Origin: Candidatus Scatovivens sp.
Lineage (GTDB): Bacteria > Bacillota > Clostridia > TANB77 > CAG-508
DNA: 37,561 nucleotides
Reading direction: 5' to 3'
Assembly: GCA_045602645.1 (NCBI GenBank)
Contig: JAZSBZ010000066.1
Coordinates: 1-37,561 of the forward strand
The notes below the pieces were generated by a model. The model searched no databases and was not told where the DNA came from. It was given only the letters and a program-made list of their open reading frames with translations. The position numbers were made by a program, and so were the translations under genes. Below, piece by piece: positions 24,049 to 36,397 of this stretch. Within the stretch, counting starts at the first letter, position 1. Every line of letters starts with the position of its first letter.

Positions 24049-24507
24049 ATGATTTCTAAAGCATTAGAAGAATATATCAAAGCAATGTATGTTTTAAATA
24101 AACAAAAGGGTGAAATAAGAGTAACTGATATTGCTGAAAAAATGAAATGTTCTAAAGCAAGTGTTACAAAATCTTTGAATAGTTTAAAAGATAAAAATCT
24201 AGTAAACTATGAAGCTTATGGAAAAATTGAGCTTACTAAAGAGGGAACAGAGATAGCACAAAGAGCTTTGGAAGCATATGATATTGTTTATTTGTTTTTT
24301 AATAAACTTCTTGAACTTGATGAAGAAAAAGCTAAAAAAGAAGCAGAAAGTGTTAATAAGGTTTTAAGTGATGAATCATTAAACCTTATGGCAAGATATG
24401 TTCATAATGAGCTTGGACTTTCAAATTTAGATTGTAGATATGATTTAAATGATAAAAAGTGTAGAGATTGTGTAAAAAGAAATATAGATAAACTAGAGGT
24501 AAATTAA
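24049..24507 (+). CDS. DtxR/MntR-family regulator with a C-terminal Cys motif
   Basis: LEEYIKAMY, RVTDIAEKMKCSKASVT HTH, YGKIELTKEG; tail C-x8-C-x2-C. Confidence 0.85.
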   Translation: MISKALEEYIKAMYVLNKQKGEIRVTDIAEKMKCSKASVTKSLNSLKDKNLVNYEAYGKIELTKEGTEIAQRALEAYDIVYLFFNKLLELDEEKAKKEAESVNKVLSDESLNLMARYVHNELGLSNLDCRYDLNDKKCRDCVKRNIDKLEVN

Positions 24508-26293: not shown

Positions 26294-26995
26294 TTATCTG
26301 TTACAATAACAGCCAGGACATTGACAGTTACAATTGCATGCACTCGGGAGAATTACGTCTTCAACGTAACCATCATAGGCGACATAGTCGATAGAAACAT
26401 AACCGATGGTTCCATCAGAAATATCCTTGACACGGATGTAGCCATTTTTGACGGTAGGATCAACAATCTCTACGAGTTCGCCATTGTACAAGTACTTGAG
26501 TCGGTAACCTTTACGAGAGGGCTTCTTGCGAAGGTTGAGCTTCTTATCAGAAGTAACCACCAAGGTGGCGCCTTCATAGTAGAAAGTTTCTTCGCTGGAA
26601 GAAAAAATCTCATCGTAGGAAACTTCCTCGTCAGGCTCGTAAGTGAAGTTGGGGACCACGGGAGTGGTTTGATTCCCAAGAGATTCGAAAGCCAAGTACT
26701 CGCCGTAGACGTAGCATTCAAGTCCGGTTTCATCAACACGAACATGATAGTAACCGTTGCGGTCGATTTCACTGAGAATGGTGACGGTCTTTCCAGAAGC
26801 AAGCTTACCAATGATTTCACCCTGAGGCTCACGCCTGAGGTTGAGTTTGGAAGCATTGACGACGCGCGCAGTAGAATAAAGAGGCAAGCTCTCGTTTGCT
26901 GCTGCAACAGTGGTAGCCGTGATGGTGATGATCAAGATGATACAAATCACCAAAGTAAACATTCTGCCAAAAATCCGTTCCGCCTTCATATTCAT
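26294..26995 (-). CDS. Secreted protein with two SH3b domains and a Cys-rich tail
   Basis: Signal peptide; two LNLR...GY..V...GYV SH3b repeats; C-terminus ACNCNCQCPGCYCNR. Confidence 0.85.
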   Translation of the reverse strand: MNMKAERIFGRMFTLVICIILIITITATTVAAANESLPLYSTARVVNASKLNLRREPQGEIIGKLASGKTVTILSEIDRNGYYHVRVDETGLECYVYGEYLAFESLGNQTTPVVPNFTYEPDEEVSYDEIFSSSEETFYYEGATLVVTSDKKLNLRKKPSRKGYRLKYLYNGELVEIVDPTVKNGYIRVKDISDGTIGYVSIDYVAYDGYVEDVILPSACNCNCQCPGCYCNR

Positions 26996-27123
26996 ACCTC
27001 CTAAATATATAGTTGCGAGAACTACTTATATTTTACCATAAAAATGACAAAAAGTAAAGTTTTATGGTAACTTGAGGGCTTAAGCAGTTGACATAACTAT
27101 ATAAAATGTGGTATAATGATTTT

Positions 27124-27210
27124 GTAAGGGAGTAATTACCATTAAAAAATGGAACAGTATCAACAATGGCGGATACAAAACCTGGTACTGTTTTAAAATA
27201 TGAGACTTAC
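27124..27210 (+). ncRNA. yybP-ykoY (Mn2+) riboswitch, copy 1
   Basis: P1 GTAAG/CTTAC with GGAGTA and TGAGA L1 loop, P2 CCATT/AATGG, P3 AACAGTAT/GTACTGTT with TCAACA loop and CCTGG. Promoter TTGACA 27088, TATAAT 27112. Confidence 0.85.
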
Positions 27211-27262
27211 TAGCAGTTTTGCTAAATAAGTCTCACTTTGTTCATAAATATATTCTAAAGTT

Positions 27263-27297
27263 AGACATATTTGGCAAACGCTAAATATGTTTTTTTA
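27263..27297 (+). terminator. Riboswitch expression-platform terminator
   Basis: AGACATATTTGGC-aaac-GCTAAATATGTTTTTTT just upstream of the RBS. Confidence 0.8.
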
Positions 27298-27316
27298 ATA
27301 AAAGGAGGAATTTATT

Positions 27317-27796
27317 ATGAACAATGATCTAGATGAAACTACACAAAGAGCTGTATCAGATAACTCTTATATAGCTAGATTAAAAAGAACAAAGAAACAA
27401 GAGGTTTTAGACATAATTGATGCAATTCAATATGAAAACAGATATGGAACATCAGCAATGATGGGACCATATACAGCATCAGAAACAGAAAGAGAGTATA
27501 GAAAACTTTTAGATGCTCTTAGTAGTGTACCTGGATTAACAAATGATGAAATAATTGAACTTACAGAAATTATTAATAAAGCAATATCTGAAATACCGAA
27601 AACAGAAAAAGCTAAAGAAGATGATTACATTCAATATGAAGAAAGAAAAGAAGCTGCTTTTGAAAGAGCAAAAGCTAGATTTGGATCTTTAAGTAAAGCG
27701 AAACAATTAAAACTTCGTTTAGCTGGAAAAGCTCCAGAAAATATTGATAAAGATTGGACTAGTATTGAAAAACTTGAAGAGATGTATAGAGATTAA
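27317..27796 (+). CDS. Hypothetical helical protein under riboswitch copy 1
   Basis: AAAGGAGG RBS; no TM segment. Confidence 0.8.
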   Translation: MNNDLDETTQRAVSDNSYIARLKRTKKQEVLDIIDAIQYENRYGTSAMMGPYTASETEREYRKLLDALSSVPGLTNDEIIELTEIINKAISEIPKTEKAKEDDYIQYEERKEAAFERAKARFGSLSKAKQLKLRLAGKAPENIDKDWTSIEKLEEMYRD

Positions 27797-27831
27797 TAAA
27801 TAAAGATAAAATTTAAGGAAAGGTGATTAAG

Positions 27832-28098
27832 ATGGAAGTATATAGGAACTTGATTGATACTTTCTCTAAACTTGATAAAGATATCAAAAGAGAAGAAATC
27901 AAAAAAGAGTGCCAAGAGACTTTAATTGTTCTCGAGAAGTTATGTCGTGATAAAAAGATTAAGTCAGAAACACTTCTTCATGAACAAATGAATAACTTAG
28001 ATGTAATAAATAGTTCTGAAGAAGACTGTTTAAATGCCATCTATAGTTACATTATAGCAATTGAAGAAAAGCTAGGAAGTTATTTTGGAAATAATTAG
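27832..28098 (+). CDS. Small helical hypothetical protein
   Basis: AAGGTGA RBS before ATG 27832 (GTG 27823 is possible); same operon. Confidence 0.7.
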   Translation: MEVYRNLIDTFSKLDKDIKREEIKKECQETLIVLEKLCRDKKIKSETLLHEQMNNLDVINSSEEDCLNAIYSYIIAIEEKLGSYFGNN

Positions 28099-28128
28099 TT
28101 ACAAATGGATAAAGGGGGTTGTTATATT

Positions 28129-28884
28129 ATGGATAATATTAATGACTTAACAAATAATTTAAAAGATTCAGTTGATAGAGTTAAAAACGCATCTGAAGCT
28201 AGAAAAGAATATGCTAAGAAAATAATTGATGGTATTATGACTTCTCCAAAGGGAAGATTGTATATAAAAAATGTGCCAGAATATCAAGAATATTTAACAT
28301 TAAGAAAAGATCCTTCAAGAGAAGGTGCTAAGTATGAATTTTGCGTTGTTAGTGCTATGAAAAATCCTGATACAGGATTTACTGAAGGAAGAGAATATAA
28401 TTTTTTAGATCCGGCTTCTTTTATAGAAACTGTAGATGAAAATAGAGCTATTTTAGATAGTGAACTTGTTAATGCAGATAACTATCAAAGAGTAAAAGAA
28501 AGTGGTTTAAATACTGATGCTTCAAAAGAGACTGAAAGTGAATCACAAAAAGCTAAAAGAGAAATGAAAGAACGTATAGGTCAAATGAAGACTGTACCAG
28601 ATTATAAAAAGCAAAGGGTATATGATGTACTTGATGCTATTGAAAATCATGGTAAAGTTAAAGCTTCAGAACAAGGAGATGTCTATGAACATTTAGCTTT
28701 AAGAAAAATGGATGGTTTGTATAGATATTGTATATCTAAAAAAGTTGTTGATTCATATAGTGGTGCAACAATGGTTCGTGATTATATTCCATTAAATTCT
28801 AAAACTTTAGTTGCTTATGTTGAAGAAAATAGAAAAGTAATAGATAAAGAAGTAAAAAGATTACAAGCCTTAGATGCTAGATAA
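28129..28884 (+). CDS. Hypothetical protein with a duplicated domain
   Basis: AAGGGGG RBS before ATG 28129; two LxLRK...YxxC...RxYxxL...VxENR repeats; terminator at about 28911-28948. Confidence 0.8.
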   Translation: MDNINDLTNNLKDSVDRVKNASEARKEYAKKIIDGIMTSPKGRLYIKNVPEYQEYLTLRKDPSREGAKYEFCVVSAMKNPDTGFTEGREYNFLDPASFIETVDENRAILDSELVNADNYQRVKESGLNTDASKETESESQKAKREMKERIGQMKTVPDYKKQRVYDVLDAIENHGKVKASEQGDVYEHLALRKMDGLYRYCISKKVVDSYSGATMVRDYIPLNSKTLVAYVEENRKVIDKEVKRLQALDAR

Positions 28885-29159
28885 TAGCTAAAAAAAGTAA
28901 TATAAAAATGAAGACTGTAGAGTTTTTAAAACTTTGCAGTCTTTTTTTGACTAAAAGATAAAGTTGTCATTGCCTTTAAGAGTTTTCCATGTTATAATGC
29001 AGTCTGGAATAACATGGTTATTTCAGGTAACACTGCAAGTTTGCTGAAATTTTGGCATTCTTGTATATCCTTATGTCTCTCTAAAAAGGAGGTTATTTTT
29101 TGTTAAGAGAGATGATCGTAACTTTAGTAACTGTTGGACAATGAAAGGAGTGTTTTAGT

Positions 29160-31535
29160 ATGCCTTATACTATCAACCTGACGACACTCAAATCTCATTA
29201 TAGAGACGCTGCACGGACCCTTTACAACAAGGAATTGAGTCAGCTTTCTCCTCATGAGATTAACGGTGTCATCGCAAACGTGGTGAAGAACAAAGTAATT
29301 TGTAATAGCTGGGAATACTCTCAGAATCTGTATTCTCAGCAGAGAATTGCTATTTACTTCTCCATCGAATTCCTCATTGGTCGTGTTGTGCTCGATGCAC
29401 TGAATAACACTGGCCTTTTGGAGGAAACCAGAAAGATTTTTGAAGAAGAAGGAATCGATATCAACTGCCTGGAGGCTGTTGACGATCCTGCACTCGGCAA
29501 TGGTGGCCTCGGTCGTCTTGCTGCCTGCTTCATTGAATCTGCTGCTACTTTGGGAATCCCGCTTTACGGCGTTGGACTTTTCTACAAGTACGGTTTGTTC
29601 AAGCAGGCATTTGACGAAAACGGCTGGCAGATTGCCAAAAGTGATGACTGGACTGCTGGAGGAATTGATCCTTGGTTTGAAGGTCATGAAGACGAATACG
29701 AAATCGTAGAATTCCAGGATACCAGGGTTAAAGCTGTTCCTTACGTGATGCCGGTTGTTGGTTACAAGACTAACGCGTTCCCGCTCACTCTTTGGAAAGC
29801 TGAACCTATCGAAGGACAGACCAACGCATCTGCTGCAGCAATCTCTGACTGGCTGTATCCGAGCGATGGTGACGATGATGGTAAGATCCTCAGAATCCGT
29901 CAGGAATATTTCTTTGTTAGTGCAATGCTTCAGAGAATTTTCCGAATCCACAAAGAAAAGCATGGTACTCTTGATAACATCGGAGATTACTATTATTTCC
30001 AGATGAACGATACCCATCCGGTATTCGGTTGTTTGGAATTTATTAGACTCCTGAAACTTGAGGGTTATACGTTTGATCGTGCGTTTGAGATGGCAAGAGA
30101 TTGTTTTGCTTATACTAATCACACGATTATGCCGGAAGCCCTTGAGAAGTGGAATATTTTGCTTTTCAAGAACCTGCTGCCTAACGTCTTTAAGGTAGTT
30201 GAAGAAATTAATCAGAAGCTCATTGATGAACTCAAGAGAGAAGATTATTTCTGCAACACCCGAATGGAAAATGGGCGCTATGTTAAGGATCCCGCATGGG
30301 ACAGAATCAATCCGTATGAAATGTTCCAGGGGGGATACGTTCATATGAGCCGTATCGCATGCTATGTCGGTCGCAAGATCAATGGCGTTGCATCGGTTCA
30401 CACGGAAATTATCAAGAAGGATCTTTTGAGCATTTGGAATGCTCGCTATCCTTGGAAGTTCAATAACAAGACTAACGGCGTTACTCCTAGACGTTGGCTG
30501 AGACTGGCTAATCCGGATCTGGCTGCGTTCTTGGACAAGTATGTTGGTCCTGAATGGACTACCGACATGACTCTGCTCGAAGGACTTGAGCAGTACAAAA
30601 ACGACAGGGAAGTCCTTGCAGAATTCGCAGCTGCGAAGTTTGAAGCCAAGAAACGTTTGGCAGCCTACATCGAAGAGAAGGAAGGTATCTATGTAGATCC
30701 TACCAGTATTTTCGACTGTCAGGTTAAGAGAATCCATGAGTATAAGCGTCAGCTTATGAATGCTCTTAGAATTCTTTACATTTACGACCAGCTTAAGAAG
30801 GGTAAACTTCCGAATTTCTACAAGACAACCTTCATCATCGGCGGCAAGGCCGCGTCTTCCTACAAGAAGGCTATCCAGACTATTGCTCTTATTAAGGACA
30901 TTCAGCAGCTCGTTAATAACGACCCTGATGTTAATGATAAGATGCAGGTTGTGTTCCTTACGAACTTCAATGTTAGCTATGCTGAAAAGGTATATGCTGC
31001 TGCCAACTTCTCTGAACAGATTAGTACTGCAGGTACCGAAGCTTCTGGTACCGGTAATATGAAGTTCATGATGAACGGCGCACCTACCATTGGTACTCTT
31101 GATGGTGCCAACATTGAGATCGTTGAGGAAGCAAGTTCCAAGAACAACTATATTTTTGGTGCGACAGTTGAAGAACTTAAGCGTATTAAGTCTATCTACA
31201 ATCACCATACTATCCTCGAATCCAACAAGGAAATGGTAGATCTGCTCGCTTACCTTAAGGGTGAGAGAACGCTCAGAGCTACCTACTGGGATCTCGTGAA
31301 CACTTTGCTTTACGACGACAAGTATTATGTGATGTATGACCTTGAGTCTTATATCAAGATTTCCCTGAAGGCAATCGCGGACTATGGTTTTGAACAGCAG
31401 ACTGGAGACCTGACTCATCATACGAGAAAGGCCTTCAAGAACACCGCCCATAGTGGCAAGTTCTCTTCTGACCGTACGATCCTTGAGTATGCCAACGACA
31501 TTTGGTATATCAAGCCTGTAGAAGTTAACAACTAA
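29160..31535 (+). CDS. glgP: Glycogen/maltodextrin phosphorylase
   Basis: GNGGLGRLAACF, QMNDTHP, TNGVTPRRW, KRIHEYKRQ, EASGTGNMK (PLP lysine). Confidence 0.96.
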   Translation: MPYTINLTTLKSHYRDAARTLYNKELSQLSPHEINGVIANVVKNKVICNSWEYSQNLYSQQRIAIYFSIEFLIGRVVLDALNNTGLLEETRKIFEEEGIDINCLEAVDDPALGNGGLGRLAACFIESAATLGIPLYGVGLFYKYGLFKQAFDENGWQIAKSDDWTAGGIDPWFEGHEDEYEIVEFQDTRVKAVPYVMPVVGYKTNAFPLTLWKAEPIEGQTNASAAAISDWLYPSDGDDDGKILRIRQEYFFVSAMLQRIFRIHKEKHGTLDNIGDYYYFQMNDTHPVFGCLEFIRLLKLEGYTFDRAFEMARDCFAYTNHTIMPEALEKWNILLFKNLLPNVFKVVEEINQKLIDELKREDYFCNTRMENGRYVKDPAWDRINPYEMFQGGYVHMSRIACYVGRKINGVASVHTEIIKKDLLSIWNARYPWKFNNKTNGVTPRRWLRLANPDLAAFLDKYVGPEWTTDMTLLEGLEQYKNDREVLAEFAAAKFEAKKRLAAYIEEKEGIYVDPTSIFDCQVKRIHEYKRQLMNALRILYIYDQLKKGKLPNFYKTTFIIGGKAASSYKKAIQTIALIKDIQQLVNNDPDVNDKMQVVFLTNFNVSYAEKVYAAANFSEQISTAGTEASGTGNMKFMMNGAPTIGTLDGANIEIVEEASSKNNYIFGATVEELKRIKSIYNHHTILESNKEMVDLLAYLKGERTLRATYWDLVNTLLYDDKYYVMYDLESYIKISLKAIADYGFEQQTGDLTHHTRKAFKNTAHSGKFSSDRTILEYANDIWYIKPVEVNN

Positions 31536-31657
31536 ATAAGACATAGGAAATCCCGGGGACATTTAGTCCCCGGGATAACTCATTTATAGGGTAAAAACAG
31601 GTGATTGAAATATTGATATTAGTTGACATAACATCAAAAATATGATATACTAAACTT

Positions 31658-31743
31658 GTAAGGGAGTAATAACCATTAAATATGGAATAGCATCAACAAA
31701 GGCGGAAACAAAACCTGGTGCTATTTTAAAATATGAGACTTAC
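31658..31743 (+). ncRNA. yybP-ykoY (Mn2+) riboswitch, copy 2
   Basis: Same architecture as copy 1 with compensatory P3 changes (AATAGCAT/GTGCTATT). Promoter TTGACA 31623, TATACT 31646. Confidence 0.85.
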
Positions 31744-31801
31744 TAGCAGGTTTGCTAAATAGGTCTCAATTTTTGTATCTAAAATAAATAACCCCAAAAG
31801 A

Positions 31802-31835
31802 AGACGTATTTAGCAGGATGCTAAATATGTTTTTT
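31802..31835 (+). terminator. Riboswitch expression-platform terminator, copy 2
   Basis: AGACGTATTTAGCA-gga-TGCTAAATATGTTTTTT. Confidence 0.8.
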
Positions 31836-31857
31836 GTATTTAAAGGAGGAATTTATT

Positions 31858-32631
31858 ATGGATGCAAAAAAAGAATATAAGCCGAATATTTTACAAAGAT
31901 TATTACTTAGAAAAGAGAATGTTTCAACAGATAGATTAAGAGCGTTTTATAATAAAATGCTTGAATCTGGAAATGTACCTTCAAAACTTAAAGCAAAAGG
32001 TGTTATTCCTGAAAGAGCTGCAAGTGATTTTTTACATGCAATTACTTATGCTACAGACTTTGATAACAAAAAAGGTCAATATGTTATTGACCATAGATTT
32101 AAAGAAAATGGTAAAGATTGTAGACTTGTTTTAGAACAAGGGTATTTATCTGATTGGGAGATTGCGTATCCTGCTACTAAATTTACAATTGAAAAAGATG
32201 GAGAGGTAACTCATCAATCTACAATTGGTGCAAATTTATTTAGAGGTACAGAGCTTGTGCCTGTTATGGAATATGCAAGAATAATGTATGGGGAAGAGAC
32301 ATATGGATATTTAATGGAACTAGCTTGTAGAAAGCTTGAAGTATTACCATATATCCCATGTGATCCATCTTACGATATGCCTCATGAAAGCAGTAAAAGA
32401 CAATTAATGAGATTTTTAAAGCTTGATAAGACAGCTAGAAAAATTATTAGAGAATATAAAGCTTTAGGAAAAGAAAAAGATAAATATGATAGAAAGAAAA
32501 AAGATACTGACATCATTAATGAAGTTAGAATGAATAAATTCGATAAAGAATATAAGGTAAAACCTGAAGCTACAAATGTAATTAATATGCCTGTAAGAAA
32601 ACCAGTAGATAGAGAAAGAGTTGATGACTAA
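31858..32631 (+). CDS. Hypothetical soluble protein under riboswitch copy 2
   Basis: AAAGGAGG RBS before ATG 31858; ends ...VDRERVDD; terminator GGCCACGC/GCGTGGTC follows. Confidence 0.8.
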   Translation: MDAKKEYKPNILQRLLLRKENVSTDRLRAFYNKMLESGNVPSKLKAKGVIPERAASDFLHAITYATDFDNKKGQYVIDHRFKENGKDCRLVLEQGYLSDWEIAYPATKFTIEKDGEVTHQSTIGANLFRGTELVPVMEYARIMYGEETYGYLMELACRKLEVLPYIPCDPSYDMPHESSKRQLMRFLKLDKTARKIIREYKALGKEKDKYDRKKKDTDIINEVRMNKFDKEYKVKPEATNVINMPVRKPVDRERVDD

Positions 32632-34091: not shown

Positions 34092-34270
34092 AAAATATAA
34101 AAAGAAAATAATTTAAAGGAGATTTAAAATTAATTTTTAAGTCTCTTTTTTATGCTAAAATAGGCTGTTTAAAAGCTTTAAATTTGAATTAAAGTCTTAA
34201 ATGTGGTATAATATAATTGGATAGCTTTATGCTAAATTTTTATTTGCCGAAAAAGGCAGGAGGTACATTT

Positions 34271-35308
34271 ATGTGGCGTAAACGGACTTTAAGAGGTATG
34301 ATTTTCATTGCAACTTTGTTTGCAATTATAGCATCAACATCAGTCCTCGCGTACGCAGCAAACGGATGCAGTTATGATAGCATGAAAGATAATATTACAA
34401 AGCATATAAACGAACTGGTAAGCCTTATTGAGGAAAATGATGAATTCGTTGAAGAAGCAACTCAGCCTGTGACAGAAACTGTTATTGAAACTGTTCCTGA
34501 AACTACTGAAGCTCTTGAGATTGTATTTACTCCCCTCGTTTATAGACAGACCAGTGAAAACCCACCTGAGCCGGAATTTTTGAGTAACTTTACTTCTGAA
34601 GTTCCCGTCTTAGTACAAACCGTCCCTGAGGACGATGACATGGCAATCAATATTAAGGAAATCTTGATTGATGGTACGCAGGTTTATGAGTTCAAAGGTA
34701 TGGACTTTACAATCCCTTATAATCCCATCGAAAGAGAACCTATGGTCAGTGAATCTGGTTATGTTGAGCAGTATACTGAAGTTCCCCTTTATATTCAGCA
34801 ATCTTACCCTTACACTAAGTATGGCGGACATGGTACAGTATCCAGTCATGGTTGTGGAATTACAAGTTGTGCTATGGTATATACATATCTTTTAGATAAG
34901 CCTATCATGCCTGATGAGCTTGCTGAAGTATATGGTAAGTATAACACTTCTTGCGGTTCTTCCTACACACTTTTTAGCCAGTCTGCTGAAGACCTTGGTT
35001 TAGAAGTTGAAATGGTATATAATTGGCAAGACGTAGAAGAAGCCTTAAAGAATGGATGTGTTGTTATTGCGAATGTTCGCTCTGATTCTATCTTTACTAC
35101 TGGCGGACACTATATTGTATACCGCGGAATCACTGATGATGGTAAAATCCTTGTAAACGACCCCAACATTTACAATTATGGTAAGTGGTCTAGCAATGCA
35201 CTTAAGGAAGGATTTAAAAATGGATTCGATCCAAAATACTGTAAGTACAGTTTTCCTTGTTGGATTTATTCTCCCAAGGATATTGAAAACGTATCTGAAG
35301 CCCAGTAA
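34271..35308 (+). CDS. Secreted peptidase C39-like protein
   Basis: Signal peptide (LAYA); LYIQ...GCGITSCAMV...GHYIV...NDP Cys-His-Asp triad; AGGAGGT RBS before ATG 34271. Confidence 0.85.
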   Translation: MWRKRTLRGMIFIATLFAIIASTSVLAYAANGCSYDSMKDNITKHINELVSLIEENDEFVEEATQPVTETVIETVPETTEALEIVFTPLVYRQTSENPPEPEFLSNFTSEVPVLVQTVPEDDDMAINIKEILIDGTQVYEFKGMDFTIPYNPIEREPMVSESGYVEQYTEVPLYIQQSYPYTKYGGHGTVSSHGCGITSCAMVYTYLLDKPIMPDELAEVYGKYNTSCGSSYTLFSQSAEDLGLEVEMVYNWQDVEEALKNGCVVIANVRSDSIFTTGGHYIVYRGITDDGKILVNDPNIYNYGKWSSNALKEGFKNGFDPKYCKYSFPCWIYSPKDIENVSEAQ

Positions 35309-35389: not shown

Positions 35390-36397
35390 TTATTCTTTAT
35401 AATGAGTTTCCATTTTATCTAGATAATCTCTGATATTTACTGAAGCTCTATCTATGATTTTATAGTTTGTATATTTTCCATCTTTGTTTTTAAATAATTC
35501 TATATATATTTCAAGCTCTTTTAGTTTTAAAGCGTTTGTTGCTTTATAGATAGGATAGATATACTCTTCGTCACTTTCGTCGTAAATTGACTCATTAGGA
35601 TCGAATACAAAGATATTTCCTTTTATGTCTGCATCATAATTTACTTTTACAACTAAACTTTCTGCTTCTTCTAAATCGAATATTATTTCACATGCATTTA
35701 AGTAAGCTTTTTCTACATGGATATTTATAGTATCATTAATATTTGCACTTTCAAATTCAATTAAGTTTTTATTATTTAAAATATGGTTATCTCTAATATA
35801 ATCTTCAACTACTTTATATTCGTATGTGCTAAAGTCGAAGAATTCTCTTAATATTGTTTCTAATTTATTTATAATGATGCAATCTACTTTTGGTTTGATT
35901 GAATCTATAAAACCTTTATCTTCGGATACTATGTAGGCATTTGTATAATCACTTTGTTTTAGGAAATTTACTATGGCAGATATTATCATTGCATCTGGAA
36001 ATTCTTTTGGTTTTGATGTTTCAAATGGTTTTTCTTTATTGAAGTACCATTTATTTACATCAGCTATATCTAAATATTTTTCACATTCAAGAACCATAAT
36101 GTTATTTCTTTCGATAAATTCATCAAGCTTTTTTAAGTTTTCTTTTAGTATGCTATCATAAAATTCTTGGTTTAATTTGTTTCTAACGTAGATAGATTTA
36201 ATATTGTTTTGATCATTATCAATTGATTCTTTAATGTGTTTTTTTAGTTCTTCAATTACTATATTTGGAAGACATACTTCAATGTTAGTATACCTTTTAA
36301 GTACTGCTAAAATGTTGTTGCGGTATGTATGTTCAAAGTCGTATTTTTCTTTTCTACCAAATACATTTGTATCTAAGAAAATAATATCTTTTTCCAT
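35390..36397 (-). CDS. PIN-domain protein (DUF4935-like)
   Basis: FLDTNVF, IVIEELKKH, KPF...KEFPDAMII, VSEDKGF acidic PIN residues. Confidence 0.85.
   Translation of the reverse strand: MEKDIIFLDTNVFGRKEKYDFEHTYRNNILAVLKRYTNIEVCLPNIVIEELKKHIKESIDNDQNNIKSIYVRNKLNQEFYDSILKENLKKLDEFIERNNIMVLECEKYLDIADVNKWYFNKEKPFETSKPKEFPDAMIISAIVNFLKQSDYTNAYIVSEDKGFIDSIKPKVDCIIINKLETILREFFDFSTYEYKVVEDYIRDNHILNNKNLIEFESANINDTINIHVEKAYLNACEIIFDLEEAESLVVKVNYDADIKGNIFVFDPNESIYDESDEEYIYPIYKATNALKLKELEIYIELFKNKDGKYTNYKIIDRASVNIRDYLDKMETHYKE

Follow-up and report, generated by a model that had tools for sequence, protein, structure and literature searches.

Riboswitches that sense manganese have been portrayed as a fail-safe that turns on exporters (PMC11672702, PMC3766115; here and below, what is said of published systems follows excerpts of the cited articles). 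The canonical yybP-ykoY form, represented by RF00080 and by Lactococcus lactis yoaB, Escherichia coli mntP, and Bacillus subtilis yybP and ykoY, is a four-way junction that includes helix P4 and carries the L3 consensus ACAUACU (PMC12153347). In the Streptococcus pneumoniae mgtA riboswitch, P4 is replaced by an invariant UNAAA, which is followed by the terminator; AGA on the 3' side of L1 and a C and an A in L3 are invariant, a C-G pair of P3.1 accepts a cross-helix A-minor contact, and the GG of L1 is needed for metal-dependent compaction, as judged from the G16A/G17A phenotype (PMC6649816). The E. coli alx element, whose L3 is divergent, is another member of the family that is naturally a three-way junction; it lacks P2 (not P4), acts on translation, is coupled to pH, and is restricted to Enterobacterales (PMC12153347). 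Here we describe, in a 37,561-nucleotide (nt) contig of Candidatus Scatovivens sp. (JAZSBZ010000066.1; the whole stretch is called the window below), two copies of a related regulatory cassette, A and B, each of which runs from a promoter to a ribosome-binding site (RBS) in front of a gene for a soluble orphan protein. We consider the best explanation, with a probability of about two in three, to be that these are yybP-ykoY-type Mn2+ ON cassettes with a two-hairpin expression platform, and that they have spread to lineage-restricted soluble proteins.

The original prediction had placed a duplicated cassette at 27086-27319 and 31621-31860, and both copies are indeed present there (Table 1). Aligned over their whole length with MAFFT (27040-27330 versus 31575-31870), they showed 86% mean column identity, and in a search of their own genome (G000; 1.62 Mb in 117 contigs, 87% complete), cassettes A and B matched with 82% identity over 234 nt (E = 1.1e-58). 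The likeness begins at AGTTGACATAAC, the -35 box, and ends at AAAGGAGGAATTTATTATG, that is, exactly at the start codon; the flanks and the coding sequence past the ATG are unrelated. When the riboswitch-linked proteins encoded in the genome were compared with one another by BLASTP, no paralogy was detected (best pair A1-A3, E = 0.11), so that the description of a portable regulatory cassette is apt. Folding of the two leaders was unusually stable (z = -5.2 for A and -4.6 for B), with none of 200 dinucleotide-shuffled sequences folding equally well. A genome-wide count raised the number of copies from the two first noticed to six, on which BLAST and our covariance model R1, built from these six copies, agreed: two lie in the window, two on contig C86, and one each on contigs C7 and C30. 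Both the -35 and the -10 box are kept in all six. A seventh, weak match (C31:23526-23670, E = 0.16) was dropped because it lies within a coding region. Metagenome contigs of DNA sequencing runs ended or forked inside the cassette B aptamer (31717-31746), and one loose contig end at this place ran on as in the C86a copy; short-read assemblies are thus broken by the repeat, and its copy number in metagenome-assembled genomes may be underestimated.

Six copies in 1.6 Mb, together with metagenome contigs that end at 31737/31746 within the repeat, could also be expected of a dispersed repeat or mobile-element remnant that lies upstream of genes by chance and is not a regulatory RNA. We hold this to be very improbable, because the likeness is so exactly bounded by the -35 box and the start codon, the copies are always in sense orientation and upstream of an open reading frame (ORF), and neither terminal inverted repeats nor a transposase was found at the copies. 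Furthermore, base pairs covary and single copies stand ahead of Mn exporters throughout the class (see below), which already contradicts a remnant.

Published covariance models gave low scores. With Rfam 15 at gathering score there was no match in the window, and a permissive Rfam scan over 26950-32000 returned no Manganese row at E <= 10; the rows that it did return over this region (e.g., mir-651 and bglG) were at chance level and were rejected. On short stretches, RF00080 (Manganese) scored cassette A at 9.5 bits and the C86a copy at 13.2 bits, short of its gathering cut-off of 45, and RF02617 (SSRC10) scored cassette A at 20.5, the C86a copy at 20.6, and L049, an MntP-linked relative, at 31.6 bits, short of its cut-off of 56. 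SSRC10 is a small RNA of Streptococcus pyogenes that maps immediately ahead of a putative calcium transporter gene (PMC3675131), and, judging from this position, it is probably the same RNA as the mgtA riboswitch. With RF00080, L049 reached 26.4 bits (E = 8.7e-6), in an alignment that set GGGAGUAG on the L1 and UCAACAUA on the L3 of the model. The original prediction had named the lack of a covariance-model hit as grounds for giving it up. At the Rfam cut-offs there was no hit, yet we judge this test too strict, since none of 20 related Clostridia loci with the same aptamer (L135-L154), most of them ahead of MntP or P-type ATPase genes, reached the RF00080 gathering score either.

Our own covariance models connect the window cassette, without a break, to copies that stand ahead of MntP, P-type ATPase, and Na/Ca-exchanger genes in its relatives. 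R1 matched 18 of 61 genomes of relatives, other families of the same order among them, and the genes directly behind the remoter matches encode MntP, Na/Ca-exchanger-family (Na_Ca_ex) proteins, and P-type ATPases. The second model, R2, gave 79 aligned matches in the genus and the order, among which L074 probably duplicates L045 and L096 probably duplicates L056 (identical leader score and first ORF); 36 of the rows are transporter-linked, 17 by Pfam and the others as judged from N-terminal sequence, and 43 are not. R2 scored cassette A at 96.6 bits (E = 3.6e-20) and cassette B at 96.2 bits (E = 4.6e-20). Both window cassettes have GGGAGUA on the 5' side of L1 and UCAACA in L3. Among the R2 rows, GGGAGTA occurs in 77/79 (34/36 transporter-linked, 43/43 others), GAGAC on the 3' side of L1 in 74/79 (33/36 and 41/43), TGG behind P3.2 in 35/36 transporter-linked and 41/43 other rows, and (T/C)CAACA in 75/79; the signature words are thus equally kept in the two groups. 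The AACA of L3 was invariant in all 31 aptamers aligned (see below), and the fourth base of L3 ACA... is A in the window copies. In place of P4, the window copies have UUAAA; TTAAA occurs in 66 of the 79 rows and TGAAA in 3 further ones. A four-way junction (P1-P4) is absent from the cassettes: they have no P4, and between P3.1 and the 3' side of L1 lie just the 5 nt of UUAAA and 3-4 pairs of P1.2.

With S. pneumoniae mgtA, the window copies have in common the lack of P4, the UNAAA, L1 with 5' GGGAGUA and 3' (G)AGA, the invariant C and A of L3, the C-G pair that closes P3.1 above L3 (columns 50-86; 30/30 distinct sequences), and a terminator hairpin that begins inside the strand made of L1-3' and P1.1-3' (here H1, from GAGAC). 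With the canonical yybP-ykoY family they share the L1-L3 docking signature and a P1.1 switch helix that overlaps the expression platform, and their related copies are tied to MntP and P-type ATPases (PMC12153347); they differ in the three-way junction, in an L3 of ACAAUGG or ACAAAGG, and in an RF00080 score far under the cut-off. Unlike E. coli alx, they contain P2 and would control termination. Hence the assignment to yybP-ykoY holds in substance, by signature nucleotides, switch helix, and the gene neighborhood of relatives, and not by Rfam score. The assignment is thus right in kind, the window cassettes being of a P4-less, three-way-junction yybP-ykoY type nearest to S. pneumoniae mgtA.

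The structure was examined in an alignment of 31 aptamers, 18 from the genus's non-transporter group and 13 more distant; two weak rows, L054 and L041:1631-1696 (the latter an H2 hairpin that R1 had matched with its H1 part), had been excluded. The 26 pairs counted for the three-way junction (P1.1, 8; P1.2, 4; P2, 5; P3.1, 9) were standard in 91.6% of cells; shuffling of columns gave 79.8%, and sliding of the 3' partners gave 27-44%. Changes on both sides were seen in 18/26 pairs, and none of 500 shuffles reached any of five measures; since the aligned aptamers are related, this shuffle count is no probability, and sliding makes the fairer control. P1.1, with 85% of cells paired, had changed on both sides in 5 of its 8 pairs, one position showing U-A, C-G, and U-G; P1.2 likewise showed U-A, A-U, and C-G. 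The 3' strand of P1.1 is also the 5' arm of H1, which gives the aptamer an alternative pairing with the expression platform. Two compensatory differences between cassettes A and B, noticed earlier in the long stem, proved real (U-A/C-G and C-G/U-A) and are located in P3.1.

Within the genus, 31 of 75 species genomes had a match, and multiple copies were confined to six of them: G000 (6), G031 (6), G029 (5), G063 (4), G035 (4), and G005 (3). In the genomes searched, spread of the element in many copies to non-transporter genes was seen only in these six species. In an even sample of the order, 18/151 genomes matched, with one copy each except for G000, while 34/150 other genomes of a class sample matched with 1-3 copies each. 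By Pfam, the 30 first ORFs of the class sample (at 31 matches in 29 loci) comprised 13 MntP, 10 P-type ATPases, and 1 Na_Ca_ex (24/30 altogether), and also 2 ABC ATPases, 2 OAD_beta, 1 TetR, and 1 without family. Since the class-level copies stand mostly before exporters and none of the 20 loci scored reaches the RF00080 cut-off, the three-way-junction form seems to be a widespread, under-detected subtype that does the usual textbook job. A subtype present in 34/150 Clostridia genomes and missed by RF00080 at 20 of 20 loci implies that riboswitch censuses undercount. Two observations from this sample stand apart. In two Clostridia genomes (L156 and L159) the aptamer precedes a gene for the beta subunit of Na+-transporting oxaloacetate decarboxylase, an unusual target, and in a Clostridia genome of another family a single P-type ATPase gene is preceded by a tandem pair of three-way-junction aptamers (L140:1501-1595 and 1645-1735).

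What is new here is the multiplication of a promoter-to-RBS cassette and its recruitment to soluble, lineage-specific proteins and enzymes, together with a probable relay between two terminators, described next. Literature on yybP-ykoY three-way junctions, their gene associations, and Clostridia, to the partial extent of titles and abstract openings, mentioned neither a multi-copy regulon nor one of soluble orphans.

In transporter-linked copies, GAGACUUAY opens a single hairpin with a U run right behind it. This is the ordinary design, in which formation of P1.1 blocks the terminator. In the 26 core non-transporter leaders, by contrast, the U tract behind H1 is displaced or weak, and all 26 have a stronger second terminator, H2, 30-45 nt downstream with arms that resemble those of H1. 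The inner arm sequence shifts in step from cassette to cassette, being of a GCA, GUAC, or AAC type. In cassette A, H2 had a folding energy of -13.9 kcal/mol and the cross duplex between the 3' arm of H1 and the 5' arm of H2 one of -11.7 kcal/mol; in cassette B, the cross duplex reached -16.8 kcal/mol. Duplexes formed within the same leader averaged -12.1 kcal/mol versus -9.8 kcal/mol for arms from mismatched cassettes, and none of 5000 permutations of these non-independent, kindred sequences was as low; the energy tests did not include L124 and L128, in which a long A-rich insert splits the first hairpin. When the first 12 nt were held unpaired as a proxy for the docked aptamer, the minimum-free-energy structure changed to the antiterminator (H1-3' with H2-5') in both window cassettes and in 8/26 leaders, equilibrium folding being a poor proxy for a co-transcriptional choice.

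We propose that each cassette is a self-contained unit of a strong sigma-70-type promoter, a P4-less yybP-ykoY aptamer, a two-hairpin platform, and a consensus RBS. With Mn2+ bound, L1 and L3 would dock and P1.1 (GUAAG with CUUAC) would capture the strand GAGACUUAC. H1 would thereby be blocked, and its free 3' arm could form an antiterminator with the 5' arm of H2, allowing RNA polymerase to read through into the gene. When Mn2+ is absent, both H1 and H2 would form, and transcription would stop at the U run of H2. We infer both the ON direction and the relay; S. pneumoniae mgtA is a transcription read-through ON switch, and the direction would be the same here. Unlike mgtA, the window copies have a further and stronger terminator, which the H1 3' arm could open, and they are present six times per genome before soluble orphans instead of a P-type ATPase. 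By our reasoning, the odds on the two-terminator relay are roughly even. If true, it would be a compact means of tightening the OFF state of an ON switch and of interest for synthetic gene control.

In the genus, the cassette has spread to as many as six places per genome and, in this one, would control A1-A2-A3, B1, a PfkB kinase, and a 283-amino-acid (aa) phospholipase C/P1-nuclease-like protein. We read this set as a Mn2+-excess stimulon of cytoplasmic proteins. The fuller claim, that a portable promoter-to-RBS ON cassette copied before unrelated genes governs a sizeable regulon of cytoplasmic, non-transport proteins through an undescribed hairpin-relay platform (one aptamer, two serial terminators), is put forward only tentatively. 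Should it hold, Mn2+ (or Ca2+) would be a signal for a cytoplasmic program, beyond a toxin for export, and the orphans would be new metal-responsive proteins. In any case, an element multiplied in one gut genus and wired to soluble, family-less proteins offers a testable handle on their function via Mn2+ induction.

Several findings weigh against our preferred explanation or parts of it. In the folding described above, 12/26 leaders retained terminator H2 with the aptamer strand held, and 6/26 formed the antiterminator unconstrained. H2 resembles a duplicate of H1, which alone yields complementarity between them, and in some non-transporter leaders outside the core (e.g., L088, L089, L110, and L131), the sequence of the second terminator is unrelated to H1, so that a relay is no explanation for those leaders. 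A strong second terminator between aptamer and gene, unrelated to H1 in some leaders and kept in the constrained fold of others, might be expected if the orphan-linked leaders were ligand-blind, i.e., promoter-attenuator modules or sources of a stable terminated small RNA, with read-through that depends on a protein, on the speed of transcription, or on nothing at all; Northern blots did show SSRC10 as a discrete small RNA (PMC3675131). We consider ligand-blind leaders quite unlikely, because the aptamer core of orphan-linked copies is conserved and covaries across species like that of transporter-linked ones, which argues for continued selection on the fold, and because the H1-H2 complementarity is cassette-specific. 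Expression data bear on this point only slightly. In two metatranscriptomic libraries of a single study, assembled contigs cover the region in part, including portions of the A operon and of B1, and one contig of 168 nt (27238-27405) crosses H2 into A1; as RNA libraries may contain DNA and such contigs show neither transcript ends nor levels, it is at most a weak hint of read-through at H2.

Other findings concern the ligand. Besides the low Rfam scores, no window copy stands ahead of a transporter gene, none of the six copies in the genome has a Mn or Ca export gene behind it, and the genome's own mntP (contig C85) follows other genes without such a leader, so that Mn2+ sensing by these cassettes would follow from homology alone. 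In addition, the distal P3.2 of orphan-linked copies has ~2 pairs and a conserved A-rich loop, unlike that of transporter-linked copies, a shortening that could alter affinity or selectivity, and the three-way-junction relative of S. pneumoniae has a higher in vitro affinity for Ca2+ than for Mn2+ (PMC6649816). With the same fold and switch, the orphan-linked copies might accordingly answer another divalent cation (Ca2+, or mixed Mn/Ca) or have a shifted set-point, in which case Mn2+ excess would not be what the regulon reports. The conserved A-rich loop lies beside L3, and Na_Ca_ex is a frequent target in the order (9/79 rows), both of which would suit such a shift. We regard it as unlikely, since the signature nucleotides of L1 and L3 are identical in the transporter-linked and other groups, the fourth L3 position varies (ACAA, ACAU, ACAG) in transporter-linked copies too, and Mn2+ was the stronger inducer in S. 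pneumoniae (PMC6649816). Returning to the yybP-ykoY-type ON cassette, we take its ligand in the window to be, by homology, Mn2+.

The six cassettes of this genome precede A1-A2-A3 (159, 88, and 251 aa); B1 (257 aa); a 29-aa ORF with a 411-aa protein; a PfkB-family kinase (Pfam E = 2.6e-51; the best NCBIfam model, ribokinase, was under its cut-off); a 31-aa ORF with proteins of 163 aa and >252 aa; and the 283-aa protein. The 43 non-transporter rows of R2 are made up of 6 PfkB, 7 of the 283-aa family, 6 B1-like, 3 A1-type operons, 7 with a short ORF and a large orphan, 3 DHDPS (230-320 nt off and past another terminator), 2 UMPH-1 nucleotidases (whose RNA matches are weak, at 32-35 bits), and 9 further orphans. 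In further families of the order, some of the orphan families reappear behind the riboswitch: the 163-aa protein of contig C7 resembles proteins of L089 (E = 7e-14) and L110 (E = 9e-5), and L106 has a likeness to the 411-aa protein in the N-terminal part of the latter (E = 1.4e-16). The association is hence older than the genus-level expansion. A conserved ORF of 26-31 aa, ending in ...(I/V)I(K/E/Q)(G/C)LK(I/T)IFE, stands behind the second terminator and ahead of large orphans in six or seven leaders (L004:1756-1845, L005:1747-1842, L039, L040, L067, and L071); it may encode a small protein or serve as a translated leader.

The 283-aa protein (L006:1759-2607, contig C30; six orthologues) has invariant His and Asp residues and no signal peptide. 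A predicted model of it (predicted local distance difference test, pLDDT, 78.6) gave six best VIA-align matches that were all of the zinc phospholipase C/S1-P1 nuclease fold over the full length, with modest but consistent Z scores of 3.9-5.1 (next unrelated row, 3.3). Foldseek against the PDB returned nothing at E <= 0.001, and a PDB sequence-profile search with its family returned nothing relevant. From the model, the protein may be a cytoplasmic metal-dependent phosphoesterase. The gene that always adjoins it we take, from its N-terminal sequence, to be prmC (release-factor methyltransferase).

For A1, A2, A3, and B1, searches of Pfam, PHROG, NCBIfam, and PADLOC were empty save for one sub-threshold Pfam row (A2). 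All four are hydrophilic (grand average of hydropathy -0.5 to -0.9), with no transmembrane-like segment (maximum 19-residue Kyte-Doolittle mean, 0.64). The first description of them as lacking a transmembrane helix or recognizable domain is therefore borne out, while the term effector-like found no support: the proteins have no signal peptide, no transmembrane helix, and no defense or phage family. Among 5.8 billion clustered proteins, B1 had 11 homologues and A1 had 7; A3 had 27 representative clusters among 1.84 billion, and the ESM Atlas held no usable match for B1 or A3. The window proteins are conserved at the protein level (54-74% identity for B1), so that their genes are real, and the gene order A1-A2-A3 is repeated in two relatives (L060 and L061). 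An AlphaFold model of B1 from a 13-sequence alignment (mean pLDDT 79.7, predicted template-modeling score 0.73) has a four-stranded sheet with flanking helices. Foldseek found nothing for it in the PDB at E <= 0.001, and VIA-align gave Z = 4.1-4.7, under the tool's meaningful level, to Pur-alpha/PC4-type beta-sheet-plus-helix domains, a likeness that we treat as a lead only.

Table 1. Features of cassettes A and B and of the genes behind them (window positions; energies in kcal/mol).
Feature	Positions	Strand	Remarks
Cassette A promoter	27088-27117	+	-35 TTGACA 27088-27093; 18-nt spacer; TG-extended -10 TATAAT 27112-27117; consensus scan 12/12
Cassette A aptamer	27121-27213	+	Three-way-junction yybP-ykoY type (R2 model, pair counts); order: P1.1 5' strand 27121-27128, L1 GGGAGUA from 27128, P2 hairpin, P3.1, L3 (UCAACA), short P3.2, J UUAAA, L1 3' GAGA 27202-27205, P1.1 3' strand 27206-27213
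Cassette A H1	27202-27234	+	GAGACUUA...UAAGUCUC; 5' arm is the aptamer's L1-3'/P1.1-3' strand; poor U tract behind; -15.2
Cassette A H2, intrinsic terminator	27263-27296	+	13-pair stem (scan 27263-27292); U7 run; 5' arm complementary to 3' arm of H1
RBS and gene A1	27304-27796	+	RBS GGAGG 27304-27308; A1 27317-27796, 159 aa, acidic soluble orphan
Gene A2	27832-28098	+	88 aa, start MEVYRNL, orphan
Gene A3	28129-28884	+	251 aa, orphan of small family
A-operon closing terminator	28910-28950	+	16-pair stem and T run (scan)
Cassette B promoter	31623-31651	+	TTGACA; 17-nt spacer; TG-extended -10 TATACT; consensus scan 11/12
Cassette B aptamer	31655-31746	+	Architecture as cassette A (R2 model)
Cassette B H1	31735-31767	+	-14.9
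Cassette B H2, terminator	31802-31835	+	U6 run; -16.1
RBS and gene B1	31845-32631	+	RBS GGAGG 31845-31849; B1 31858-32631, 257 aa, basic soluble orphan

About 2.6 kb upstream of cassette A, the window encodes a DtxR/MntR-family metal-dependent repressor (24049-24507, + strand; Fe_dep_repress N and C domains), so that a protein sensor of Mn/Fe and the riboswitch regulon would coexist in this genome. The two genes directly behind the repressor gene encode what we take, from their sequence, to be an ABC-type ATPase and a SufB/D-like protein. Between the two cassettes lies a glycogen/starch phosphorylase gene (29160-31535, + strand) with its own promoter-like site at 28970-28998. At 44%, its G+C content exceeds that of the window (30%) and of its neighbors (27-29%), which suggests recent horizontal acquisition. 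Downstream of cassette B, and unrelated to the cassettes, are genes for a secreted or membrane-anchored Peptidase_C39-like protein (34217-35308, + strand) and a PIN_12-domain protein (35390-36397, - strand).

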